DNA from: Dehalococcoidia bacterium | GTDB lineage: Bacteria > Chloroflexota > Dehalococcoidia > UBA2979 | Direction: 5' to 3' | Length of the DNA: 64,000 bases | Assembly (NCBI GenBank): GCA_965198045.1 | Contig: CBDAOL010000012.1 | Coordinates: 346,105-410,104 of the forward strand | Shown here: piece after piece, positions 688 to 63,060 of the stretch | Position numbering within the stretch: the first letter of the stretch is position 1 | How the letters are laid out: every line of letters starts with the position of its first letter | Notes under the pieces: generated by a model | The model's database searches: none | What the model saw: only the letters and a program-made list of their open reading frames with translations | Told to the model about the DNA's origin: nothing | Position numbers and translations under genes: made by a program

Positions 688-1895
<1,208 letters not shown>

Positions 1896-2515
1896 CGCTC
1901 CATCCTCTCAAGGACTGGAGCCTCCAACATTCCCGGGGCGGTTCAGAAAGAGAGAAAGAGCTGCTGTGGTCTCGAGGAAGCACCCCGATGGTTCGGCTGA
2001 CACCTCTACTCTGACTGTAGAGACCTGAGGCAGCCGGAACTCCGTCCTCATCGTGGGGGACGTTAGGCGGTTTGCGACAGTGCGGCGGTGATTGAGATCA
2101 CGAGTATTACCGGCAACACCCGCTTCGTGCCGAGTACGACGTGAACCGCAAGGCGGCGGGGAGGTGAAGCGCCGTGGCGGGAAGTGGACGCTGGGCAGCT
2201 GGATCGTGCGTCGCGCGACGGGCCGCCTAGTCTTCCGCCGGATCGCCCGCGAACATATGTGGCCTTGGGCACAAGCTCGCGAGAGCTGCGTGACATGCCG
2301 AGCGCTATCACCGCCTCCGCGGCGAGGGAGAGCCCGCACTCGGCTCACCAAGGTCTTCAAGCAGCGGGCTCGTTCGGAGACGAAGCCGCCCGTCCCCGAG
2401 GCCGACACCGCCGTCCGCTTCCGAAATGGATGACCAGCGGACTGTGGTGAGGGAGCTGGTGGCGTGGGGTGCCTCTCGTGACTGGTTGTCATCCACGGGA
2501 CTGGCCCACGAGCAG

Positions 2516-4531: not shown

Positions 4532-5614
4532 CTACACCGTCATCAGGCTTGGCGCCCCGAGTTCCGGCCCCATCTCGGCCTCGGTCAGCGGATAGGCCTC
4601 CTTGCGGTAGACCTGCACGCGGTTGTAGCCGAAGTCGGCAACGAACATCCGGTCGCCGTCGATGCGCACCGAGGCCGGAGCGCGGAAGCGCTTCTCCGAC
4701 TCAAGGGTGGTCATCTCGCGCTGACGCAGCACCCTGGCGTTCGCCATGATGTACTCGCGCCCCGACTTCGAGACGGTGGCGTCGCCGATGAAGCGCTCGA
4801 CGTAGCGGCCGTTGCGGTCAAACAGCACGACGCGGTCGTTGCCGCGGTCGGCCACATAGATGTCGCCGTGCTGGTCGACGGCCACGCCCGCCGGTCGGTT
4901 CAGCTCGCCCTCGCCGTCCCCGCTCGAACCGATCGAGAGCAATGGCTCGCCAGAGGGGCTGAACTTCTGCACCCGGTCGTTGCGCCAGTTGCCGATGTAG
5001 ATGCAGCCCTCGGCGTCGAGGGCGATGCCCCACGGCATGTCGAGCTCACCGGGACCGCTGCCGTGCGTGCCGAAGCCATCGATGTACTTGCCCTCGACGG
5101 TGAAGCGCTGCACGCGGTGGTTCATCGTGTCGACCACGAGCAGGCGCCCCTCGCCGTCGAGGGCCATGTGCGCCGGGCGGTCGAGCTGGCCCGGCTCGCT
5201 CCCGTGCTCGCCCCACTCCGCCACTTGCTCGCACTCGCGCGTGATGGTGGTGATCGTGTGCGTGCCCTCGTCCGAGACGATCAGCCGCTCGTCGGGGTCG
5301 CAGATGATCCCGACGGGCCAGGCCCAACCACCGCGGAAGGGGTCAAACTTCCTGACCTCTTCGTTAGGGCGACTGATCAATCCAAGCTCCTCGTCGTCCC
5401 TGTTGATGACCAGGATCACGCCGCCCGCCTCGAACGGCCCCCGTCGGAGGCAATACACCCGACCCTCGTTGCCGAGGGCGATGTCGATCGGGTACCGCGA
5501 GCTGGTGTGCATCCCGATCGTCTTCTCGTAGGGGAAGCCCGCGCGCAGCAGCCCCGCGAACGTGCCGCTGGCGCTCGCCCCATCGCTCGCGCCGCCGTTC
5601 GTCTCCGCCGTCAT
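4532..5614 (-). CDS. NHL-repeat (six-bladed beta-propeller) protein
   Basis: 360 aa with repeated …G.l..P.GiAvD..G.iYVaD..N.RVq.F… units (RPAGVAVDQHGDIYVADRGNDRVVLFD, MPWGIALDAEGCIYIGNWRNDRVQKFS). Confidence 0.8.
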   Translation of the reverse strand: MTAETNGGASDGASASGTFAGLLRAGFPYEKTIGMHTSSRYPIDIALGNEGRVYCLRRGPFEAGGVILVINRDDEELGLISRPNEEVRKFDPFRGGWAWPVGIICDPDERLIVSDEGTHTITTITRECEQVAEWGEHGSEPGQLDRPAHMALDGEGRLLVVDTMNHRVQRFTVEGKYIDGFGTHGSGPGELDMPWGIALDAEGCIYIGNWRNDRVQKFSPSGEPLLSIGSSGDGEGELNRPAGVAVDQHGDIYVADRGNDRVVLFDRNGRYVERFIGDATVSKSGREYIMANARVLRQREMTTLESEKRFRAPASVRIDGDRMFVADFGYNRVQVYRKEAYPLTEAEMGPELGAPSLMTV

Positions 5615-6771
5615 CGCGCCGCCCCTGCCGTGGCCATCGCCTTGTACGGGTTGATCTGCTCAAACGTGCCGCCCACGATCGCGCTCGGGTCGACCCCCAT
5701 CCACTGGTCGAGCACCGTGCTGTAGACGCTGCGGAAGTCGATCGTGTGCCGCATATCCTCGCCGTAGAGCCAGTCCTTCTGCTCGATCGAGGGGTACTCG
5801 CCATAGAGGCCGCCCTCCACGCGGTCGCCGATCAGGTAGGCGCCGCCCCCAGAGCCGTGATCCGTACCGGAGCCGTTGTCCTTGATGCGACGGCCGAACT
5901 CGGAGAAGACGAGCACCACCACCTCATCGGACGCGTCGTGTTCCCGCAGATCCTGCATGAAGTCGCTGACCGCCTCGGTCAGCTCGGTGAGCAGCCCCGG
6001 CAGCATCGTCGACTCGTTCGAGTGCAGGTCGTAGCCCGCATGCTGTGTGTAGAAGATGCGCGTCCCCAGCCCCGCGGTGTGAACGCGGGCCACGTCGCGC
6101 AGCGCCTGCGCGATCGGGTTCGGCGCGTACTCGACCTCGGACGAGTAGCGCCCGGGCACGTCCTTCAGCATGTCAGCGCTCTTCAGCACGCTGCGCCCGG
6201 TCTGCGCCAGGTAGTCCTGCACGATCCCGGTCCCGACCGGCGTGTACATGCGGCGGAAGCTGTCGAGGTCCTTGCCCCGCTCCTCCTCCGCCTCGACGTC
6301 TGTCATCAACCCGAACTGATCGAGGTCGCCCACCGAGGTCACGGTCACGCCCGACGCGGCGAGCGCCCGAGGCAGATCGAGGCCGAAGCTGACGGCGGTC
6401 AGCGGGTTCTCCGATGCGGCGTCAAACTCGCGTGTCACCTTCGCGAGCCAGCCCTCGGTGGCGATTTCATCCGGCTCGCAGGTGTGCCAGATGTCCATGG
6501 CGCGGAAGTGGGAGCGGCTCGAGTTCTCCCAGCCGACGCCCTGCACAACGGCGACGTGGCCTGCGTCGTAGAGCTCCTTGAGCGCCTTCGCCGCCGGGTG
6601 CCAGGCCAGCTCGTCGTCGAGCGGCAGCGCGTCCTCCATCGGCACCATGACGTGCGGGCGGGCATCGCGGATGACGCCGCTCTGGTAGGGGATGAGCGTG
6701 TTCAGGAAGTCCAGCCCGCCGCTGAGCTGGATCACCACCAGCACCGGGGGCTTCTGTAGCTTCGTCGTCAT
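5611..6771 (-). CDS. DUF1501-family protein (sulfatase-like fold)
   Basis: 386 aa with the SGTDHG motif and overall DUF1501 composition. Sits immediately downstream of a DUF1800 gene, the conserved pairing. Confidence 0.85.
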   Translation of the reverse strand: MTTKLQKPPVLVVIQLSGGLDFLNTLIPYQSGVIRDARPHVMVPMEDALPLDDELAWHPAAKALKELYDAGHVAVVQGVGWENSSRSHFRAMDIWHTCEPDEIATEGWLAKVTREFDAASENPLTAVSFGLDLPRALAASGVTVTSVGDLDQFGLMTDVEAEEERGKDLDSFRRMYTPVGTGIVQDYLAQTGRSVLKSADMLKDVPGRYSSEVEYAPNPIAQALRDVARVHTAGLGTRIFYTQHAGYDLHSNESTMLPGLLTELTEAVSDFMQDLREHDASDEVVVLVFSEFGRRIKDNGSGTDHGSGGGAYLIGDRVEGGLYGEYPSIEQKDWLYGEDMRHTIDFRSVYSTVLDQWMGVDPSAIVGGTFEQINPYKAMATAGAAR

Positions 6772-6783
6772 CGTTGGCCCTCC

Positions 6784-8172
6784 CTAGGCGAACTGGTACT
6801 CGGGCGTGGCCACGATCAGCTGCACCATCCGTCCGATGCGGCCCTCGGCCTCCTCGCTCGCTCCGTTGCCGAACGAGAGCGGGCCCCCCTCCTCCGCGCG
6901 CTCCACGAGCGTCGCCCGCGTCTGCGCGCTCACATCGAGCGGGCCGCAGAGGTCGAGGCAGCGGTCGACCAACTCCTCGGGCGTCGCGTCCCCGGCGGCG
7001 GCGACGCGCTCGACGATCGCGGCGATGCCCGGCTTCGAGGTGTCCATCACCTGCTCGACCGCGAAATTGACGCGCTGGGTGAGTGTGCCGGAGTTGATCC
7101 ACCCTTGGCCCGTGTGCCAGCCCTCGACGGAGGGCGGGTTCATCAGGTCCTGACCCATCAGCCTCGTCGCCCGCGAGAGCCGCATCACCGAGAATTCGGG
7201 GAAGCGCGGCGCACCGACGAGCTTGATCACCCCACCGACGAACTCGGCCGGGCTCTTGACGCGCTGGAACCGCGCCGCCTTGAAAAAGTCGGAGTTGAGC
7301 AGCGTCCGCATCACCTCGCGGATATCGCCGTCGGACTCGACGAATGTGGCGGCGAGCGCGTCGACCGCGGCCTGGTCCCGCGGCGGCTCCTCGTTCCACG
7401 AGGGCACCGGCGGCTCGTCGGCGACGAAGAAGTTGTAGAGGTGCCGGCCGATGAACCGGGCGCAGGCCTCCTGCTTGACGATCACCTCGATCACGTCCTC
7501 GCCGTCGACGACGGTCTGGCCGAGGAACGTCTTCTGCTCGCTGTCGTGGTCCGCCTCGTCGAACTTGAAGAGGGAGTCGCCGATGCCGTAGGGGAAGTAC
7601 GAGAGCGGCTGCGTGAACGTCCAACCTGTGAACGCCCGCGCCACCTCCTTGATGTCGTCCTCGCTGTAGTTGCCGACGCCCAGCGAGAAGAGCTCGAGCA
7701 GTTCGCGCGCGTAGTTCTCGTTGTTCGCGTGCGCGTGGTTCTCCGAGTTGTCGAGCCAGTCGATCATCGCCGGGTCGCGCGAGAGGTCGAGCAGGATCTG
7801 GCGCATGTCGCCGAGCCCATTCTCGCGGAAGAGCTCAATCTGCGCCGCCGACGCCCGGGCATGCGAGCCAAACCCTGTCGCGAAGACCTGGTGCCAGAAC
7901 AGCGCCATCTTCTCGCGCAGCGGGCGACGGCCGCCCGCCAGGCTGTGCAGCCAGCGCGACGCCCAGGCCCCCCTTACTTCGGGGTTGGTTGACGTCGGGA
8001 GGTAACGGTCGAGTATGTCCCGGTCGGGATCGCCCAGCGCCTCAGGGTGCAGAAACTCCTCGACGACCTCTTCGTAGGGACGCTCGACCAACTCCTCGAG
8101 TTCGTCCCGCGTCGCGCCCACTCCGACGCGGCGCATCAGGTGCGCCATCAACTCAATGTGGTCGTCCGCCAT
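6784..8172 (-). CDS. DUF1800-family protein
   Basis: DUF1800-like sequence (…HLMRRVGVGAT…, FWHQVFATG, ENYARELLELFSLGVGNYSEDD). Real start is at MADDHIELMAHL (cat at 8170..8172). The 105 upstream codons in the track ORF (to 8487) are Arg-rich junk. Confidence 0.8.
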   Translation of the reverse strand: MADDHIELMAHLMRRVGVGATRDELEELVERPYEEVVEEFLHPEALGDPDRDILDRYLPTSTNPEVRGAWASRWLHSLAGGRRPLREKMALFWHQVFATGFGSHARASAAQIELFRENGLGDMRQILLDLSRDPAMIDWLDNSENHAHANNENYARELLELFSLGVGNYSEDDIKEVARAFTGWTFTQPLSYFPYGIGDSLFKFDEADHDSEQKTFLGQTVVDGEDVIEVIVKQEACARFIGRHLYNFFVADEPPVPSWNEEPPRDQAAVDALAATFVESDGDIREVMRTLLNSDFFKAARFQRVKSPAEFVGGVIKLVGAPRFPEFSVMRLSRATRLMGQDLMNPPSVEGWHTGQGWINSGTLTQRVNFAVEQVMDTSKPGIAAIVERVAAAGDATPEELVDRCLDLCGPLDVSAQTRATLVERAEEGGPLSFGNGASEEAEGRIGRMVQLIVATPEYQFA

Positions 8173-8659
8173 GGGAACCCCGCTCTCCAGCGTCCCCGGC
8201 CGCTGGTGGCGTCGGCTGTCAGCATCAGCAGCTACTGCTCTTATATCACGTACGTCGGGGCGCGCTGCGCGTCGTGGTAGGCGAGGCGTTTCGCTCGCAG
8301 GGCCTCGGCCGCGCGCTTGTGCCGTAGCTCCCAGAAGTTCGGTGCGCACTTGCAGTGTGAGGGGCGAGAATCGCCCTGAGTGACACCCATCTCGTGCTAC
8401 CCTCGCGGCCGCTGGGACGGTCGTCAGTGGGGAAACCGGCTCACGCCGGACGACATGGCGGCTCCCCCAGCAGCCTTCTCCCCGCACGCAGCGCTCGCGC
8501 GGGTGATGCGCCAGACCCCCTTATGGCACGTAACGATTCAGCCGCATAGCGACAGCGATAGGGTCCGCCCTGAACACGTTTCGAGCCGAGCTCGATGCAA
8601 AGCTCGCCGGCCCCGTTGCGCTCGACGACTACCGCGAGCTCGCCGAGAACATCTCGGAC

Positions 8660-11262: not shown

Positions 11263-11823
11263 GTGCCCACGAACTACGACTTATCCGCAATCGAGCAAGA
11301 CTCACCGCCACGAGACGCAGCGCTTCTCTACGCGCGCCGAGGATGGTCCGTCGTCCCGGTGTGGCCTCACCGAGGCGGCGTGTGCACCTGTCCTCTTGAT
11401 GCGCGATGCACCTCCGCGGGCGCGCACCTGCATGAGCGGACGCCGACTATCGACTCGGCGACCAAGGATCTAGATGAGATTGCCTCTTGGCCTTCGGACG
11501 TGAACGTCGGCGTTGCCCTCGGGGAAGCGAACGATGGCCTCCGCGTTCTGATCCTCGACGAGCCTTTGAGTGAGATCGGCGTGTGCTTGGGCGCGGGCTT
11601 ACTGGTGGCGGCCGCGAGATGTGACGGTGCACTCGAACTCCACTACTACCAAATCGGCGCCGAGACACACCCGCACGATGAACACGGGTCGGTTGGTGAA
11701 CTTCTTGCTGACGGACGCTGGGTGCTTGCGCCTCCGTCTCCAGACGTCAGTGGCTGTCGCCACATGTGGGTCTCCAATGGCCCCTGGGCCGATCTCGAGG
11801 AGTCAAATGGCGCAGCCAACTGA
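11263..11823 (+). CDS. Truncated prim-pol (bifunctional DNA primase/polymerase N-terminal domain) paralog
   Basis: …PRDAALLYARRGWSVVPVWP…GVCTCPL…DVNVGVALGEANDGLRVLILDEPL aligns residue-for-residue with the N-terminal half of the downstream PrimPol. GTG start at 11263 with GGGAGAG RBS; an ATG at 11218 is an alternative. The track ORF from 11131 is over-extended. Lacks the second half of the domain; the KHP motif reads AHL and DD reads DE. Confidence 0.6.
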   Translation: MPTNYDLSAIEQDSPPRDAALLYARRGWSVVPVWPHRGGVCTCPLDARCTSAGAHLHERTPTIDSATKDLDEIASWPSDVNVGVALGEANDGLRVLILDEPLSEIGVCLGAGLLVAAARCDGALELHYYQIGAETHPHDEHGSVGELLADGRWVLAPPSPDVSGCRHMWVSNGPWADLEESNGAAN

Positions 11824-13759
11824 AGCGTACGAACCCGAGAGCGCGAACATGGGACTGCCGCTGCGACCGCGCGATGCGGCACGCTACTACGCGCGAAACG
11901 GATGGGCAGTCCTCGCCCTATGGCCCCCCGACGGGGACGGGTGCTCGTGTCGAATGGGCAAGAGTTGCCCCTCGCCAGGGAAGCACCCGCACGAGTACAC
12001 CCCCACCGTGTACGCGGCGACCTCCGACATCGACGAGATTGGAGCGTGGCCCGACGACGTGAACATCGGTGTCGCCCTCGGCGCGGCCAGCGGCGGGCTG
12101 ATGGCCATCAATGTTGACGATCCACCGCTCGCCGAGTCCCTGATTGCGTCGGGCGTCGCCGGAAACACTCCGCTTGAGCGGACTGGCAGGGGCTGTCACC
12201 TCTTCTTGCATACGACTGGCGACACGTCTGGCTTCAATCTGTCTGACAGGGACGGTAATCACATCGGTGAGGTCCGTGGCGATGGTCAGTACGTTGTGAC
12301 ATCGCCATCGCTGCATGTCAGCGGCGCCATCTACGAGTTCGTGGAGACGCCGACCCAGATGGTCTCGGTCGAAAACATGCGTGCCCTGGTGCCGAGGATG
12401 TTCGAGGAGCGACTGGGCGTTGTTCTCGCACCCGTGAGCGAACCTGTTCCGGCGGTGCCGGACGGCGTTGTTGTTACGCCAAAGCCGCTCCCCGCCGAGC
12501 TGATGGAGTCGGGCAAAGCTGATCTCAAGTTGCGCCAGCTCATGAGCGGCGCGATTCCATACACGCCGGACGATCGCAGCGACTTCCTCTACGAGGTGGC
12601 GATGCTTGCGGCCGAGGCATACGTGGCACACGGAATCGCCCTCGACGCCGAGGCGATTTCCGGACACGTCCTGTTCCTCCACGAGCTCCTCGGAATGGAT
12701 AAGTACACCGGGCGAAGCAAAGAGTTCTACCGGCTCGGTCTGAAGGCGGTAGCGAAGCATGGTCGGCCGCACAAGCCTGAGCCGGAGAACGACGACCAGG
12801 CCCATCCGCCTCGCCGCCAGGAGCCTCTCCTGATCGAGGAGCTGGCTGGCGATCTCGTCACCGAGCTACCGGAACCGATCCTCGACCCGTACGTCCAGCC
12901 GGACAGCGGCACGCTGCTGTTTGCGCCGCCGGACTCTGGCAAGACGTACGCCGCGCTGCTGATGGCGATCAGCATCGACGCCAGAGTCTGCACGTTCTGG
13001 AACGTCCAACAACGCAAGCTGATCTTCATCAACTTGGAGCGCTCGCGACTGTCCCTGTCTCGCCGCATCGCCCGAGTCAACCGCGCGCTTGGCCTGCCGC
13101 CGGAGCGGCCGCTGCTGGTCGTGAACGGGCGTGGCAAACGGCTGGCCGACATCGAGAACAAAATCGCGAGCGCGATTGACGAGTACGGCGTCGAGCTGGC
13201 CTTCCTCGACTCGGTCAGTCGTGCTGGTGTCGGGAGCCTGGTCGAAGACACGTCGGCCAACGACGTGATCGACATGCTGAATCGGCTCTGCCCGACCTGG
13301 TTCGCGATCGCGCACACGCCACGTGCCGACGACACACACGCCTACGGCTCGGTCATGCAGGATGCCGCTGCCGACGTGATGGTCCAGGTGGTCAGCGAGG
13401 AGCTGGCGGACGGCACGCGCGGCGTCGGCATGCAGATCACGAAGGCGAACGACATTCGCAAGCCACCGCTGGAGATCATCGCGCTCGAATTCGACGAGGT
13501 CGGGCTGACTACGGTCCGTCATGCCGACACGGCGGAGTTCCCGAACATCGGCAGGAAGAGCGGGAGCACCACGGCTGGCGAGCGGATTCGTGCAGCCCTG
13601 ATGCTGCGTGGACCAATGAACGTCAGCGACACAGCGAAGGCGGCCGGCGTCCACCGCCGCTCAGTCGGTCGCGCCCTGAAAGATGGCCTGATCGTCGCCG
13701 TCCCCACACCATCCGGCGGACGTGGCAGCTTCGTCGCTGCGGCTGCACCCCAACCGTGA
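11807..13759 (+). CDS. Replication protein: prim-pol domain + AAA_25-type P-loop (RepA/DnaB-like) + C-terminal HTH (RepPP-type)
   Basis: …DAARYYARNGWAVLALWP…GCSC…PGKHPH…VNIGVALGAASGGLMAINVDD…GCHLFLHT…IGEVRGDGQYVVTSPSLH is the prim-pol domain. …LLFAPPDSGKTYAALLMAIS… is a Walker A. C-terminal …SDTAKAAGVHRRSVGRALKDG is an HTH. ATG at 11807 with GAGGAG RBS; the annotated ORF from 11570 is an N-terminal over-extension overlapping the upstream gene. Confidence 0.85.
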   Translation: MAQPTEAYEPESANMGLPLRPRDAARYYARNGWAVLALWPPDGDGCSCRMGKSCPSPGKHPHEYTPTVYAATSDIDEIGAWPDDVNIGVALGAASGGLMAINVDDPPLAESLIASGVAGNTPLERTGRGCHLFLHTTGDTSGFNLSDRDGNHIGEVRGDGQYVVTSPSLHVSGAIYEFVETPTQMVSVENMRALVPRMFEERLGVVLAPVSEPVPAVPDGVVVTPKPLPAELMESGKADLKLRQLMSGAIPYTPDDRSDFLYEVAMLAAEAYVAHGIALDAEAISGHVLFLHELLGMDKYTGRSKEFYRLGLKAVAKHGRPHKPEPENDDQAHPPRRQEPLLIEELAGDLVTELPEPILDPYVQPDSGTLLFAPPDSGKTYAALLMAISIDARVCTFWNVQQRKLIFINLERSRLSLSRRIARVNRALGLPPERPLLVVNGRGKRLADIENKIASAIDEYGVELAFLDSVSRAGVGSLVEDTSANDVIDMLNRLCPTWFAIAHTPRADDTHAYGSVMQDAAADVMVQVVSEELADGTRGVGMQITKANDIRKPPLEIIALEFDEVGLTTVRHADTAEFPNIGRKSGSTTAGERIRAALMLRGPMNVSDTAKAAGVHRRSVGRALKDGLIVAVPTPSGGRGSFVAAAAPQP

Positions 13760-14090: not shown

Positions 14091-15622
14091 AGGTGGCGCA
14101 GCAGCAGACCCGGCGCGCCGTTATCTACACGCGCGTCTCCAGCGAAGAGCAGGCACAAGGACACTCGCTCGAAACGCAACGCCGGGAACTCACGGCATGG
14201 GCCGAGCGCGAGAGCTGGGAGCTTGGGCGAGTCTACGAAGACGCGGGTGTGTCCGGCACAAGTGTGGCTGGGCGGCCTGCGTTCAGGGCAATGCTCTCCG
14301 ATGCGTACGACGGGCTCTTCGATGCCGTGCTTGTGCTTCGTCGCGATCGATTCGCGCGGAACATCGCGGAGGCGATGGCAACCGAGCAGTCGCTTCGGGA
14401 CACCGCCGAGGTGCGGGTTCTCTCGCACGACGAGCCAGCCGGGAATGACGACACACCGGACGGCTTCTGGAATCGGGGGATGTCTGACCTTCGGGCCGCT
14501 CACTACAGCGTTGAACTCTCGGAGAAGACGAGTGCTGGTTGGCGCACCCGCGCCGAAGAGGGCTTGCCGGCGGGTGACATTCCGTTCGCCTATCTGAGCA
14601 CCGGGCGGAAGTCCGCGCCGGCGGTCGTGGAGGAGGAGGCTGTCGCCCTACGCGCGATCTTCGAGCGCTACTCAGTGGGGAACGCATCGTTGAACCAGCT
14701 CGCCGACTGGCTCAATGAGCACGGTCACAAGCCGCGTTCGAAGCGCGGCTACACGACGTTCGGCGCGAAGTCCGTACGAGTCATGCTCTCGAATCGGTTC
14801 TACCTCGGCGACATCATGTACAAAGGCGAGCGGGTGGCCGAGGGGCAGCACGAGCCGATGATCGATGCCGATCTGTTCAACAAGGTTCAGGCCGTCCTGA
14901 AGCAGCGAGCACGGCGGCCACGATCATACGCAGCCAGCCCGCCGCGCGCGTACATACTTTCCGGCGTGGCGATCTGCGCGGGATGTGGCGGACCGCTGTG
15001 GGTGAACAGCACGAAGTCACAGCGCCATGCGTACTACCGGTGCAGCAGCCGGAGCCACGATGTCGGCTGCCCCGATCGCTTCGAGACGGTGCGCGGCGAT
15101 GTCGTCGAGGGCCAGGTTGCCGGACTATTCGAGGCGATGCGGCTGCCATCGCAGTGGCGCAGCCGAGTCGAAGAGCTGGCCGACTGCACCGACGACACAC
15201 GGACTGATCCAGCGACGCTCGAGGCACGGATCGAACGCGCTCGCGAGGGCTTCCTGTCCGGCGTGCTCGACGAGTCAACCGCTAAGGCAGCGGTCGTTGA
15301 CGCGGAGCGCGAGCTTGCCGCCATCCGACCAGCCGTCGCGGAGACAGTCAGTGCAGGCGAGTCGCTCGCCGATGTGCACGAGCTGTGGCCGCACATGACG
15401 GCGGAGGAGCGACGCGATCTGGTTCGGATGACGGTCGATGTGGTCGCCGTCGATCTCGGCTGCAACCAAGTGGTCGGCGTGCTGCCGAAAGACCACTTCG
15501 CGCCGCTGTTCAAGGTGATCTGTGATGAGGAAGGGGCCATCCGCGTGGCGGACTGGCCCCAATCTCATGAAGTTCGCGGATGGCGACCCCGAACGGATTC
15601 GAACCGTCGATCTCCACCGTGA
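14087..15622 (+). CDS. Large serine recombinase (phage-integrase type: resolvase domain + recombinase domain + zinc ribbon)
   Basis: N-terminal AVIYTRVSSEEQ catalytic-serine motif and …RRDRFARN…. Also a recombinase domain and a Cys cluster (CAGCGGPLW…YYRCSSRSHDVGCP). The last ~14 codons (…GWRPRTDSNRRSPP) are encoded by the 3' part of the tRNA-Asp gene on the opposite strand. Confidence 0.9.
   Translation: MKVAQQQTRRAVIYTRVSSEEQAQGHSLETQRRELTAWAERESWELGRVYEDAGVSGTSVAGRPAFRAMLSDAYDGLFDAVLVLRRDRFARNIAEAMATEQSLRDTAEVRVLSHDEPAGNDDTPDGFWNRGMSDLRAAHYSVELSEKTSAGWRTRAEEGLPAGDIPFAYLSTGRKSAPAVVEEEAVALRAIFERYSVGNASLNQLADWLNEHGHKPRSKRGYTTFGAKSVRVMLSNRFYLGDIMYKGERVAEGQHEPMIDADLFNKVQAVLKQRARRPRSYAASPPRAYILSGVAICAGCGGPLWVNSTKSQRHAYYRCSSRSHDVGCPDRFETVRGDVVEGQVAGLFEAMRLPSQWRSRVEELADCTDDTRTDPATLEARIERAREGFLSGVLDESTAKAAVVDAERELAAIRPAVAETVSAGESLADVHELWPHMTAEERRDLVRMTVDVVAVDLGCNQVVGVLPKDHFAPLFKVICDEEGAIRVADWPQSHEVRGWRPRTDSNRRSPP
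15581..15608. repeat. 28-bp direct repeat (attR-like core) inside the tRNA-Asp 3' end, identical to 4086..4113
   Basis: Perfect 28/28 identity with the upstream copy. Spans T-arm to CCA. Confidence 0.7.
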
Positions 15623-15657
15623 CAGGGTGGCGTGTTAGACCGCTACACTACGGGGCC
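15581..15657 (-). tRNA. tRNA-Asp (anticodon GTC), 77 nt including encoded CCA
   Basis: The reverse complement folds as a cloverleaf: acceptor GGCCCCG/CGGGGUC, D-stem GUGU/ACAC, anticodon stem CCACC/GGUGG with loop CUGUCAC (GUC), T-arm GACGG-UUCGAAU-CCGUU, discriminator G, CCA. Confidence 0.9.
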
Positions 15658-20702: not shown

Positions 20703-21326
20703 TCAGTCGATGTCTATGTCGACCGCCAGCACCTCGGCGATCGCGCGCCGTGTCACGTCGTAGCTGAAGCCACGGCGCTGGAGGTAGCCGTACAACCGCT
20801 GCCGCCGGAGGTCCGGTTCGAGTCGGCGCAGGCTCGGGACGCGCCGTCGAGCCGTGGCGATCGCCGCCGCTGCTTCGTCGAGGTTGTCTGTGGCTGCCTC
20901 GACGTGCTCGCGGGGGACGCCGCGGCGCACGAGGTCCTGGCGCAAGCGTCGGGCGCCGAGCCGTCCGCGGCGCGCCTCGACGAACTCGGTCGCCCAGCGG
21001 GCGTCGTCCAGGTAGCCGAGCTGCCGCAGACGATCGACTGCGGTGTCGATCTCCTCGTCTGCGAACTGACGCCGGAGGCGCTGCCGCAGCTCATGTTCCG
21101 TGTGCGAGCGGCGCGAGAGCGACGCGAGTGCACGCTCGAGGGCGAGTCGTCGCCGACCGGTGGCCCGCAGCTCCGCCCATTCGCTCTCCTCAAGGGCGAC
21201 GCCTTCTGATAGCGCGCGCGCCTCGACGGGCTCGCGCGCGAGGAGATGCTCGCCCGGTTCGCCGGCCAGCTGGATGGCGATGGCGCCGCGGCGGCGCGTG
21301 ATCGACGTGACGGTCGGCATAACCAC
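20703..21326 (-). CDS. recX: Regulatory protein RecX
   Basis: 207 aa. Directly downstream of recA with 15-bp spacing. Arg/Leu-rich three-helix-repeat composition; RecX-like (…RSHTEHELRQRLRRQ…). Confidence 0.8.
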   Translation of the reverse strand: MVMPTVTSITRRRGAIAIQLAGEPGEHLLAREPVEARALSEGVALEESEWAELRATGRRRLALERALASLSRRSHTEHELRQRLRRQFADEEIDTAVDRLRQLGYLDDARWATEFVEARRGRLGARRLRQDLVRRGVPREHVEAATDNLDEAAAAIATARRRVPSLRRLEPDLRRQRLYGYLQRRGFSYDVTRRAIAEVLAVDIDID

Positions 21327-58291: not shown

Positions 58292-60142
58292 TCAGACCAA
58301 CACGCGAGCATCGCCCTGGCGACGGGTCACGCCTCCGCGGTCGAGCGTCTCGAGGACTGCCTGCGCTGTGCGCCGATTCGTTTCGAGGGCATCCCGGGCG
58401 TTCGCCAGGGTGACCTCACCGTGCTCGCGGATGAGCGCCTCGATCTGCGCCTGCGCGGCGTCGAACGCCGTTCGCGCCAGCACCACTCCATCGCCGCAGT
58501 CGACCGCTCGCCCGGCGCCCTCGAGGTGCGCCACGACCTCGGCGTCGGCGTTGAGACGCGGGGGTTGCGCGCCGCCCGTGTCGAGGGCGCTTGCGACCTC
58601 CTCGATGGCGGCCTGCTGTGCCGCGCTGGGTGATGGCGTCCAGCCGGCGTCGACGACGCCGTCGCGCTCCGCGACGAGGTCGGGCGCGAGCGCACGCAGC
58701 ACCGCTCCGAACGCGCGAGGCGCGAGACCGAGACGGCTGCGCAGCTCCTCGCGCGGCATCGCGAAGCGCAGGGGGAAGTCTTGGTGGTACAGGGTGAGGG
58801 CGTTCGCCGCGCCCGCACGGAAGCCGGCGATGCCGGCCGCAGAGAGGTAGAGGGGCGCTCCGCCCTCGACCGGCAGGGCGAACACGGCCCCTTCCTCGAC
58901 AAGCGCTACGAGCGTGTCGTCGAGTTCCTCCCGCGCCAGTTCGATGTTCCCCGCGAAGTCGTCGAGGGGGGCCGGTTCCACGCCCCCGAGCGCGGCCAGC
59001 ACGCGCGCCTCCGGCGTGCCGGCGGCACGTGCCTCGATGCGAGCGATAGTCTCCGCTGACGAACGGCGATGCCGCGGCGGATTGACCTCGATGATGCGTC
59101 CACCGGCAATGGTCTCGTCTGAGACGCGGAGCACAAAGAGGTCGCCCGGCACGGCAGCGGCTGGCTCGGACAGCACGATCTGCACCCAGCCCTCCTCGCT
59201 GGCGGCGATCGCGTCGCCTTCGAGGATCCGCACCCGCGCCTGCACATCGGCCGCGCCCACGTGGAGCGCGACCCGCAGGTTGTGTCGCAGCGCCCGGTGC
59301 TCGAGCACCCGCACGCGGGCGTCCAGCGCGGTGACCGTCTGCAGCCGCCCGGGCGCTGCGAGCACCTGCCCGCGATGCACGTCCTCGAGGTCGACACCGG
59401 CCAGGTTCACGGCGACGCGGCTTCCGGGCTGGGCCTCGTCGACGGCCTGTTGATGCGTCTGCAGCCCGCGGATGCGCGCCGTGTCGGTACCGGGCGTGAG
59501 TTCGACTGAGTCCCCGACGCGCAGACGGCCGTCGAGCAGCGTGCCGGTGACGACCGTGCCGAAGCCGGACATGGTGAACACGCGATCGACGCCGAGGCGC
59601 GGCCTGCCGATGTCCCGCGGTTCGTCGACGGCGTCGACGGCGAGGTCCAGCGTCGAACGGAGCTCGTCGAGACCGTCGCCGCTCACGCTCGATACCTCGA
59701 CGATCGGCGCATCGGCGAGGCGAGTGTGCTCGAGGATGCTGCGCACCTCCTCGGCGACGAGCTCCGACCAGTCCCCGTCGACGAGGTCGCGCTTCGTCAG
59801 CGCCACGACGGCGTGCTCCACCTCGAGCAGATCGAGGATCTCCAGGTGCTCCCGGGTCTGCGGCATCACGCCCTCGTCGGCCGCGATCACCAGCAGGGCG
59901 AGGTCGATGCCGCCGGCGCCGGCCAGCATGTGGCGGACGAAGCGCACGTGGCCCGGCACGTCGATGATCGAGATCTCGCGACCGGAGGGCAGCGTCATCC
60001 AGGCGAACCCGAGCTCGATCGTGAGCCCACGTTCCTGCTCCTCGCGGAGCCGGTCGGGGTTGATGCCGGTCAGTGCCTGGATGAGGGCGGACTTGCCGTG
60101 GTCGACGTGTCCAGCCGTCCCGACGACGAACATGGCGGGCAT
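58292..60142 (-). CDS. selB: Selenocysteine-specific translation elongation factor SelB
   Basis: N-terminal GTPase VVGTAGHVDHGKSAL…DVPGHVRF…, EF-Tu-like domains II/III, and a ~250-aa winged-helix C-terminal extension. 616 aa, matching SelB and not EF-Tu. Confidence 0.9.
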   Translation of the reverse strand: MPAMFVVGTAGHVDHGKSALIQALTGINPDRLREEQERGLTIELGFAWMTLPSGREISIIDVPGHVRFVRHMLAGAGGIDLALLVIAADEGVMPQTREHLEILDLLEVEHAVVALTKRDLVDGDWSELVAEEVRSILEHTRLADAPIVEVSSVSGDGLDELRSTLDLAVDAVDEPRDIGRPRLGVDRVFTMSGFGTVVTGTLLDGRLRVGDSVELTPGTDTARIRGLQTHQQAVDEAQPGSRVAVNLAGVDLEDVHRGQVLAAPGRLQTVTALDARVRVLEHRALRHNLRVALHVGAADVQARVRILEGDAIAASEEGWVQIVLSEPAAAVPGDLFVLRVSDETIAGGRIIEVNPPRHRRSSAETIARIEARAAGTPEARVLAALGGVEPAPLDDFAGNIELAREELDDTLVALVEEGAVFALPVEGGAPLYLSAAGIAGFRAGAANALTLYHQDFPLRFAMPREELRSRLGLAPRAFGAVLRALAPDLVAERDGVVDAGWTPSPSAAQQAAIEEVASALDTGGAQPPRLNADAEVVAHLEGAGRAVDCGDGVVLARTAFDAAQAQIEALIREHGEVTLANARDALETNRRTAQAVLETLDRGGVTRRQGDARVLV

Positions 60143-60175: not shown

Positions 60176-60454
60176 CTAATCGAGGACGCGATGCCCCTCG
60201 AGCGTCGCGCGCTGACAGGCCGGGCAGCGCGCGGGCAGGTCGTCGCGCGGCACGATCTCGCGCGTCCCCGAGACGCCGACCCAGATGTCGTCGCGCAGCC
60301 TCAGCGCGCGGTCTGGTGCGCCACGCTCGCCGCGCGCGGCCGGGCGGCGCTCCTCCTCGAGGCGGCGCGCGATCTCGGCCTCGCTCATCTCACCTTCGCG
60401 CCGTACGAGGACTTCGCGACCGCAGTGCGTGCAGCGGTAGACATCGACCGCCAT
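60176..60454 (-). CDS. FmdB-family zinc-ribbon protein
   Basis: MAVDVYRCTHCGREVLV… plus a C-terminal CPACQ second zinc knuckle. 92 aa. Confidence 0.6.
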   Translation of the reverse strand: MAVDVYRCTHCGREVLVRREGEMSEAEIARRLEEERRPAARGERGAPDRALRLRDDIWVGVSGTREIVPRDDLPARCPACQRATLEGHRVLD

Positions 60455-61715: not shown

Positions 61716-61866
61716 GGATTGAGCGTATCAGGGGCGATCGGCGGGTGCGATCGGCGCGCGACCGTGTGCGGTCTGCCGAACGGAGCTGCGCGATCATGCG
61801 TTGATCACAGTACCCACCTACGCTGATGCTGCGGCGAGCGGCGGCTGTTGGAGAGCGACGACGCGC

Positions 61867-63060
61867 ATGAATCGCACGATGACCGGCGCGCTGGCAATAG
61901 CTGTCGCCGTGCTGGCGCTGATCGCCGGCGCCTGCGGTGGCGATGACGGCGCGAGCGGAGGCGGCAACGACGCTGGCGCGACGTTCGAGCAGACTCCGGA
62001 CGTCGCTACGCCGAAGGCGACCGCTACGCCCGCCGCGCCCTCGACGCCCGTACCGACCCCGGAGCCGCGCCCCGACGGGCTGACCGGTGCTCCGGTCGAC
62101 CTCCCGAGCGCGGAGTCGGCGGCTTTCGATTCGGACCTCCTCAACGTCAACGCTGGCTCGTTCCCCTCGCTGGACTATCCGAGCCTCGTTACGGCCGAGG
62201 AGGCGACGTGGCTGGCCGACGACTCGGCCGTCCTCGGCGCGGTGCAGAACGGCGAGGCGCGTGCCTACCCGCTGGCGATGATGCGCTTCCACCATGTGGC
62301 GAACGACGAGCTGGGAGGCGAGTCGTACCTCGTCACCTTCTGAATCGTCTGTTCTTCCGGGGTCGGGTTCGACCCCGTCATCGATGGAGAAACGCTCCTC
62401 TTCACCACTGCTGGGCTCTACCAGGGCGTCTTCACGATGTGGGACGACATCACGGGCAGCGTCTGGTCGCACCTCGATGGGTCGGCGCTCAGCGGGTCTT
62501 CGGCCGGCCGGCAGCTCGAGATCCTGCCGTTGCAGACGACGACTTGGGCAGCCTGGTCGGCGCAGTACCCGGAGACGACCACGCCCAACATCGACACGCT
62601 GCGGCGGAACTCCTACCGGGAGCCGCTGTTGGGACTCGACTCGATCTCCGGTCTCTTCCTCGACACGCTGGGCGAACTCGACACGCGCCTCGACACCGGC
62701 GAGCTCGTGATCGGTGTGCTCGCGGGCGCCGAGGCGGTGGCGTTCCCGATCGAGACAGCGGCGCCCGACGGCCCGATGCAAGCCGAGGTTGGCGGCGTGC
62801 CGGTCGTGATCCTCGAGGGTGAGGACGGCGTGCCGACGCTCGCCTACCACCGCGCGCTGACCGATGGGCGCGTGCTCGACTTCGTCCGCGAAGGCGACGC
62901 CGTCATCGATCTGCAGACCGGGTCGAGCTGGAATGCGAGCGGCGTCGCCGTGAGCGATGACCTCGAGGGCGTCCAGCTCACCTTCGTCACCTCGTTCTTC
63001 ACGGAGTGGTACGGCTGGGCCGCGTTCCACCCGGACACCTCGATCTACGAGCCGGCTTAG
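61867..63060 (+). CDS. DUF3179-family lipoprotein with an in-frame TGA (candidate selenocysteine, UxxC motif); annotated as two ORFs in the track
   Basis: ORFs 61801..62343 and 62437..63060 share one frame and are separated only by the TGA at 62341..62343: …GESYLVTF-TGA-IVCSSGVGFDPVIDGETLLFTTAGLYQGVFTMWDDITGSVWSHL…. Both halves match my recollection of the DUF3179 family (…AYPL…H.vaND…, C-terminal FFTEWYGWAAFHPDTSIY), and the TGA sits where the family has the first Cys of a CxxC. N-terminus MNRTMTGALAIAVAVLALIAGACGG is a lipoprotein signal. selB is 1.7 kb away. Confidence 0.6.
62341..62377 (+). other. Candidate bacterial SECIS element: UGA + 14-nt spacer + 7-bp GC hairpin with GGGUUC apical loop
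   Basis: tga-atcgtctgttctt-CGGGGTC-gggttc-GACCCCG. Perfect 7-bp stem at 62358..62364 / 62371..62377. The loop has GGU, as in the E. coli fdhF SECIS apical loop contacted by SelB. Confidence 0.45.

Follow-up and report, generated by a model that had tools for sequence, protein, structure and literature searches.

Selenoproteins with the Pfam domain DUF3179 (PF11376) have been described before. The family is tabulated among selenoprotein families, with the motif UxxC/T, in two papers, one giving MBW1804167.1 as the example (PMC9312934, 2022) and the other MDJ0986319.1 (PMC13188914, 2026), and both credit Zhang & Gladyshev 2007 (PMC1976440). That report, on the metagenome of the Olavius algarvensis symbionts, introduced six new selenoprotein families, each with alignments of selenocysteine (Sec) and cysteine (Cys) forms and with stem-loops resembling the selenocysteine insertion sequence (SECIS), and by elimination DUF3179 is either OS_HP1 or OS_HP2 of that set. 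One of the homologues in our collection (P0040) carries the NCBI name ‘DUF3179 domain-containing (seleno)protein’, and metagenome-assembled genomes (MAGs) of Dehalococcoidia with 46–49 selenoproteins are on record (BSepDB paper). Here we examined 64,000 nt from a Dehalococcoidia bacterium (GenBank assembly GCA_965198045.1, contig CBDAOL010000012.1, positions 346,105 to 410,104), referred to below as the window, and in particular a DUF3179 gene with an in-frame TGA codon at window positions 61867..63060 on the forward strand. An earlier note, made from the letters of the sequence, had proposed this gene as a possible member of an undescribed selenoprotein family. That part of the proposal did not stand, as the publications and the NCBI name mentioned above already list the family, and the window gene adds no new selenoprotein family. 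We consider it highly probable, however, that it is a functional selenoprotein gene of the described DUF3179 family.

The locus shares with the known DUF3179 selenoproteins the Pfam family, a predicted Sec as the first residue of a U-x-x-C motif, the pairing of Sec forms with Cys homologues and a stem-loop following the UGA, and at the sequence level it has what is expected both of the DUF3179 family and of bacterial selenoprotein genes. It differs in that the window copy lies in a Dehalococcoidia chromosome and not in a deltaproteobacterial symbiont. The gene is complete and consists of a single frame of 397 codons, including one putative Sec codon, which ends with a TAG stop at 63058..63060 and has as its sole internal stop the TGA at 62341..62343 (codon 159). 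The context of this codon is ...LGGESYLVTF-TGA-IVCSSGVGFDPVIDG..., and the corresponding stretch of the predicted product reads ESYLVTF-U-IVCSSGVGFDPVIDGETLLF, so that the motif around the Sec is YLVTF-U-IVC-SSG, followed by VGFDP. When the stop was masked, the Pfam DUF3179 model matched residues 98–391 in one stretch (E 2.6e-59; 201.5 bits against a cut-off of 27), with model positions 3–292 of 292 covered. This match runs continuously across the TGA and therefore there is no frameshift, and the two halves are one gene in one frame, as had been read from the open reading frames (ORFs) in the earlier note; a search against NCBIfam assigned no family to the protein. TGA also terminates many ordinary genes within the window, a chromosome segment with a GC content of 68.8%, and thus the standard genetic code applies here and any recoding is local and site-specific.

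The TGA aligns with the first Cys of the C-P-L-C motif of DUF3179 (consensus VT[FY]-C-P-L-C-N-S), which is the position at which the family’s first C-P-x-C cysteine had been suspected. In the 78 full-length homologues that cover this column the residue is Cys in 77 and Ser in one, and the nearest Cys forms read C-V-V-C-S-S-G at the motif. The second position, Cys162 in the window protein (codon 62350..62352), is Cys in 80 of 88 sequences and Thr in six, and some members have Ala. A His at residue 142 (codon 62290..62292), 17 positions upstream of the Sec159 column and thus separated from it by 16 residues, is present in 76 of the 78 full-length homologues. The published UxxC/T motif is found in the window protein, whose U-I-V-C aligns with C-P-L-C or C-P-L-T; however the subclade to which it belongs, with U-[IV]-[VA]-C-S-S-G-V-G-F-[DN]-P, differs from the majority form C-P-L-C-N-S.

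The orthologues of the window gene carry the TGA as well, a check that the earlier note had suggested. The closest database proteins (55–67% identity) are all fragments of 220–250 aa that start right after the TGA position, because gene callers cut the orthologues at this stop, and in contig look-ups the end of the N-terminal fragment and the start of the C-terminal fragment were found at adjacent bases. A genome scan, with one genome per species, identified L001, an orthologue in a Dehalococcoidia MAG (contig CBDDEC010000004.1) that is 93% identical and has the TGA too, and eight further Dehalococcoidia/Tepidiformaceae loci with 54–66% identity, and in all nine Dehalococcoidia genome loci (54–93% identity) the codon is TGA. 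A metagenome scan added 80 loci to the genome set. Among the 92 genome and metagenome loci with the motif xxC[S/N/T][S/T]G[V/I]xF[D/N], the most distant of which are about 40% identical, 89 have TGA at this position (the metagenomic loci having been retrieved by a peptide pattern, a point taken up below), the exceptions being L015 with TGC, a Cys form, L045 with TGG and L018 with a 1-nt insertion beside the TGA. Judged by these sequences, Sec appears to be the rule in this clade. The part of the protein after the TGA (238 aa) contains no further stop in any orthologue, is 60–95% identical to the window protein and is about equally conserved as the part before it; compared with L001 its codons show 27 synonymous and 13 non-synonymous changes. 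A diverged downstream half or a truncated pseudogene, which the earlier note had named as an outcome that would speak against its proposal, is thus not what was found. The first in-frame start codon (ATG, GTG or TTG) lies 31 codons past the TGA and beyond the most conserved segment, CSSGVGFDP, and therefore independent initiation cannot explain the conservation.

Some individual loci are worth describing separately. In the metagenomic orthologue L045 the Sec codon is replaced by TGG (Trp; L045:1238-1240) and the hairpin is intact; a sequencing error, a recent mutation and a genuine Trp variant are all conceivable here. In L018, a 4.49-Mb long-read contig, an extra A after the TGA shifts the frame (L018:2904-2910), again with the hairpin intact (GGGGGUUG-GAUU-CAACCCCC), and is probably a homopolymer assembly error. 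The Dehalococcoidia orthologue L007 has a frameshift some 20 codons before the Sec codon (L007:2840-2850), with the TGA and the hairpin intact and the outer stem pair changed to A-U, and is either a pseudogene or the result of an assembly error. Besides L001, its MAG carries a second full Sec paralogue (L004), together with two DUF3179 3′ remnants (L011:6001-6237 and L012:6001-6237) that comprise only about the last 90 codons and are preceded by unrelated sequence, which suggests disruption by insertion or duplication.

A hairpin suitable as a SECIS element follows the TGA at 62358..62377 on the forward strand, starting 14 nt after the stop codon. It can be written as C-GGGGUCG-[GGUU]-CGACCCC-G, with stem arms CGGGGUCG and CGACCCCG, and consists of an 8-bp stem (62358-62365 paired with 62370-62377) and the loop GGUU (62366-62369); the 7-bp stem with a GGGUUC loop described originally is the same structure with the closing G-C pair left uncounted. 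The region encodes S-G-V-G-F-D-P-V. According to published criteria for bacterial SECIS elements (PMC13188914, Fig. 2), the loop has 3–9 nt with a G in its first two positions, the stem has 4–16 bp, the distance from UGA to loop is 16–37 nt and the minimum free energy (MFE) is ≤ −7.5 kcal/mol. The hairpin, with its 4-nt loop GGUU, 8-bp stem, UGA-to-loop distance of 22 nt and energy of −16.2 kcal/mol, falls within all of these ranges. Folded alone, it reaches this energy with z = −2.87, and 3 of 200 shuffled sequences fold as well; in a GC-rich context of 60 nt the z score is only −1.0. The fold of the single sequence is therefore suggestive but not decisive, and it is the comparative evidence that lifts it above chance. 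With regard to the bSECISearch model and the E. coli fdhF paradigm, the window hairpin likewise lies inside the coding region immediately 3′ of the UGA and has an upper stem of 8 bp and a GG-U loop start, but it has no evident bulged U or extended lower stem.

For the comparative analysis, 68 distinct 60-nt segments around the TGA were aligned, without gaps. In the eight-pair stem 95.6% of the cells are standard-paired, compared with 33–64% when the 3′ arm is slid by 1–3 columns. Cells with a double change number 26, against 6.9±2.0 in shuffled alignments, and none of 500 shuffles reaches 26. Three stem pairs covary, with the combinations CG:48/UA:16/UG:4, GC:56/GU:8/AU:4 and CG:46/UG:5/GC:4/AU:1/GU:1, and RNAalifold, run on the alignment, independently gives the identical stem. 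The compensatory changes couple amino-acid changes with synonymous ones: GTC (Val) to ATC (Ile) is combined with the synonymous Asp change GAC to GAT, and the synonymous Val change GTC to GTT is combined with GAC (Asp) to AAC (Asn). A subclade of 12 of the 68 sequences (e.g. L040, L048 and L051; alignment columns 34–39) encodes G-V-S-F-D-P with an AGU Ser codon; here the closing pair is opened, and the resulting 6-nt loop AGUUUC, with A as its first base and G as its second, also fits the SECIS model.

The Cys forms served as a control, and they lose the stem with increasing distance: seven of the eight pairs are present in L101, six in L015, five in L102, four in L103 and two to four in the distant CPLC forms. 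The stem of L015 is interrupted and does not form in the MFE structure. The Pro codon in the hairpin region is CCG in Cys forms versus CCC in Sec forms. The close Cys form L101 (L101:1001-2137; CVVCSSGVAFDP) has the loop CCUU, without a G, and its seven pairs are either those of a fossil SECIS left after a reversion from Sec to Cys or simply follow from the encoded peptide and its GC-rich codons. The hairpin recognised in the earlier note is thus present at the distance given there, has the published properties, covaries and is progressively lost in Cys forms.

These findings can be combined into the following proposal. The UGA at 62341 would be read as Sec during translation. By analogy with the established bacterial mechanism, the hairpin at 62358..62377, with its G-first apical loop 22 nt past the UGA, would be recognised by SelB, in complex with GTP and Sec-tRNA(Sec), through its C-terminal winged-helix domains, and this complex would then deliver Sec to the ribosomal A site. 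Several observations weigh against this proposal. A gene for tRNA-Sec was not found in the 64-kb window, in which ARAGORN reports a tRNA-Asp only and Rfam a tRNA-Asp and an ALIL element, nor was one found in 11 related loci. A Pfam scan of approximately 45 ORFs of the window yielded no SelA or SelD domain, and the region downstream of the L001 orthologue contains just aspS and an oligopeptide ABC transporter, with neither selA nor selD; the ARAGORN, Rfam and Pfam scans thus agree with the earlier statement that the window lacks selA, selD and tRNA-Sec. In addition, the metagenome loci were picked by the peptide pattern [VI]CSSG[VI][GA]F[DN], which is partly encoded by the hairpin, and conservation there is inflated, although the covarying and synonymous hairpin positions are not fixed by this pattern. 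The seven pairs kept in L101 may show that part of the hairpin follows from the peptide and GC-rich codon usage. Furthermore, the function discussed below is drawn only from a motif, a modelled fold and one domain fusion.

Other explanations for the in-frame TGA have to be weighed against this background. A lone stop in an otherwise intact gene looks like a sequencing error or a fresh nonsense mutation that has produced a pseudogene, and the TGG in L045 and the 1-nt indel in L018 show that errors do occur in such data; but an accident of this kind is not expected to recur at one codon in 89 of 92 independent loci, some of them only about 40% identical, with a downstream part that is open and conserved, in which synonymous changes exceed non-synonymous ones, and with a covarying hairpin following, and we regard this explanation as having a negligible chance of being correct. 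Could there be two genes, one for an N-terminal lipoprotein of 158 aa ending at the TGA and one for an independently initiated C-terminal protein? Gene callers do treat the orthologues as a pair of neighbouring DUF3179 fragments. However, initiation at the first available start would leave the segment IVCSSGVGFDP untranslated, the Cys homologues have one continuous domain, and the split would cut through a single Rieske-like domain of the structural model, all of which makes this arrangement very improbable. It is also conceivable that the UGA is recoded to an amino acid other than Sec, through near-cognate read-through by Trp or Cys or through delivery of Cys-tRNA(Sec) by SelB under selenium limitation. 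The absence of selA and selD from the sequence examined, that is, from the window and the flanks of its relatives, and the TGG in L045 would be in line with such a process. Against this, a SelB-type hairpin with canonical spacing and loop is conserved and covarying, selB is intact, the homologues have Cys and not Trp in the column and DUF3179 is an accepted Sec/Cys family; we therefore consider recoding to another amino acid unlikely, and insertion of Sec by far the best explanation.

What the selenoprotein might do can be approached from its architecture. By eye, the translation starts with a putative N-terminal signal peptide with a lipobox-like sequence L-I-A-G-A-C (61867..61935), in which Cys23 would be the modified residue, followed by a linker rich in Pro, Thr and Ala (residues ~24–95). 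In the N-terminus, MNRTMTGALAIAVAVLALIAGA-C23, position −3 is Ala and not Leu, Val or Ile, and the sequence presumably still conforms to the permissive PROSITE lipobox pattern. Full-length homologues have comparable N-termini (LTGC, LLAGC and LVACG), and it is probable from these sequences that the product is exported and lipid-anchored. A structure was modelled for the Cys homologue P0014, which is 38% identical, using an alignment of 89 sequences, and structural statements on the window protein are made by homology to this model (predicted local distance difference test, pLDDT, 87.4; predicted template modelling score, pTM, 0.82). The top structural matches are Rieske-like and none of them is a thioredoxin-fold protein. 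DUF3179 is internally duplicated, its two halves aligning as homologues (hhalign probability 99.9%, E 1.4e-32), and only the first half keeps His142 and the motif U/C159-x-x-C162, with the CxxC predicted on the tip of a beta-hairpin. The window product may accordingly be pictured, with the reservations of a model, as an exported, probably lipid-anchored protein with two tandem copies of a Rieske-like beta-domain, in the first of which Sec159 would stand in for the near-invariant first Cys of a C-x-x-C/T loop next to the conserved His142.

The likeness to Rieske proteins is one of predicted fold. The Rieske signature CxH...CxxH has a spacing of 15–17 residues, and the 16-residue gap between His142 and Sec159 falls within it. 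However, DUF3179 has H142...U159-x-x-C162 in place of C-x-H...C-x-x-H, so that the set of cluster ligands is not there; there is no sequence similarity to Rieske [2Fe-2S] domains (8hn2, 2qpz and 3gce) or to the cluster-less Rieske-like NirD (3c0d), and the DUF3179 domain differs from these in being tandem-duplicated with the motif in the first copy only. A Pfam scan of the protein gave no Rieske match, and the family profile, when searched against PDB sequences, returned nothing, even at E ≤ 10. Compared with the thioredoxin-fold CxxC/UxxC oxidoreductases (DsbA, thioredoxin-like and AhpC-like proteins), DUF3179 shares the U/C-x-x-C motif, in which the first residue is the most conserved, a predicted extracytoplasmic location and one natural fusion to a DsbA-like domain, but its modelled fold is not thioredoxin-like. 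The fusion is seen in P0072, a homologue of 574 aa in which a full DUF3179 domain (CPLC) is followed at the C-terminus by a DsbA-like Thioredoxin_4 domain that has a CPSC motif of its own, and provides a hint of thiol-disulfide chemistry for the DUF3179 family.

The first Cys/Sec of the motif is near invariant and the second is sometimes Thr or Ala, and this pattern, together with the P0072 fusion, leads us to favour an extracytoplasmic selenol/thiol redox site, in which Sec159 would most likely be the reactive nucleophile; on the present comparisons the odds for such a site are, in our view, slightly better than even. The main alternative is that His142, Sec159 and Cys162 form a metal site (e.g. 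for Cu, Fe, Zn or Hg) on the Rieske-like scaffold rather than a selenenylsulfide couple. This is a serious but less probable option, since only three candidate ligands are conserved, a near-invariant first Cys beside a second one that can be replaced by Thr or Ala is typical of a nucleophilic redox residue, the natural fusion is to a DsbA-like thioredoxin domain and no Rieske match was obtained with Pfam. The redox function attached to the CxxC position in the earlier note is suggested by the U-x-x-C motif only, the modelled fold being Rieske-like and not thioredoxin-like, and a thiol/selenol redox role may be proposed on that footing.

A full-length gene for SelB, the Sec-specific elongation factor (616 aa), is located 1.7 kb from the DUF3179 gene at 58292..60142 on the reverse strand, in accordance with the earlier description. 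It scores 332 bits against the TIGR00475 model (cut-off 242) and contains, besides the EF-Tu domains, the SelB beta-barrel together with winged-helix domains 2 and 3; its orthologue in L001 is 96% identical. On the low-coordinate side of the DUF3179 gene are secD, secF, selB, a 92-aa zinc-ribbon gene and hemW, with selB, the zinc-ribbon gene and hemW on the opposite strand and hemW divergent from the DUF3179 gene, and aspS follows downstream. The zinc-ribbon ORF (CxxC...CxxC; 60176..60454, reverse strand) lies between hemW and selB and has counterparts with 59–92% identity in L001, L003 and L006, in which the order hemW, zinc-ribbon gene and DUF3179 gene is kept. In contrast, selB is adjacent only in L001; it is about 3.7 kb further off in L006 and was not found in the 6 kb of flank of L003. 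The adjacency is only partly conserved and therefore the proximity of selB largely reflects housekeeping synteny and not a dedicated linkage, so that of the original argument from the neighbouring selB its presence holds and its position is a weak point.

Further off in the window are priA, trmD, a dcw cluster, an nrdJ-like ribonucleotide reductase gene with nrdR, and recA-recX-RNase Y. A survey of same-frame ORF pairs split by one stop revealed no further selenoprotein gene in the window; two such pairs, at 20703 and 23644, were rejected as ordinary adjacent genes (recA/recX/amidase/RNase Y and YGGT/GNAT). The DUF1800/DUF1501 pair at 4532..8520 (reverse strand), which is followed by an NHL-repeat beta-propeller gene, is in the same frame with a TAG between its members, and these also look like two ordinary adjacent genes. 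An IS3-type insertion sequence occupies 688..1907 on the reverse strand, with an HTH_Tnp_1 orfA and an rve-integrase orfB that overlap at an Rfam ALIL programmed-frameshift pseudoknot (1504..1617, reverse strand, 91 bits). A primase/helicase-like gene with Prim-Pol and AAA_25 domains (11570..13759, forward strand) lies about 1.8 kb from the sole tRNA gene of the window, that for tRNA-Asp (15581..15657, reverse strand), and may be part of a mobile element integrated at the tRNA site.

For annotation, the two fragments of the ORF list, 61801..62343 and 62437..63060, should be merged into one Sec-containing DUF3179 gene, and the same mis-split by gene callers affects most DUF3179 orthologues in public databases. 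What this study adds to the known family is a controlled comparative demonstration of its SECIS element, with covariation and with Cys forms as controls. This and the tandem Rieske-like architecture are small additions; we did not find either of them in the literature searched, where the DUF3179 mentions that we found are table entries only, and likewise found no paper on the fold of DUF3179 or on a coupling between peptide and SECIS. As a tentative and rather speculative scheme, DUF3179 might represent a tandem duplication of a Rieske-derived beta-domain in which the cluster-binding loops of the first copy have been reshaped to form a His...Sec/Cys-x-x-Cys site outside the membrane; Sec would then have nearly displaced Cys in a large clade made up mostly of Dehalococcoidia, where the SECIS stem would have become locked into the codons for S-G-V-G-F-D-P, with peptide and RNA co-evolving. 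If true, a selenol redox or metal centre of this kind, extracytoplasmic and built on a Rieske scaffold, would be new chemistry for this fold, and the predicted His...U-x-x-C site within a tandem Rieske-like domain offers a concrete hypothesis on the function of the family.

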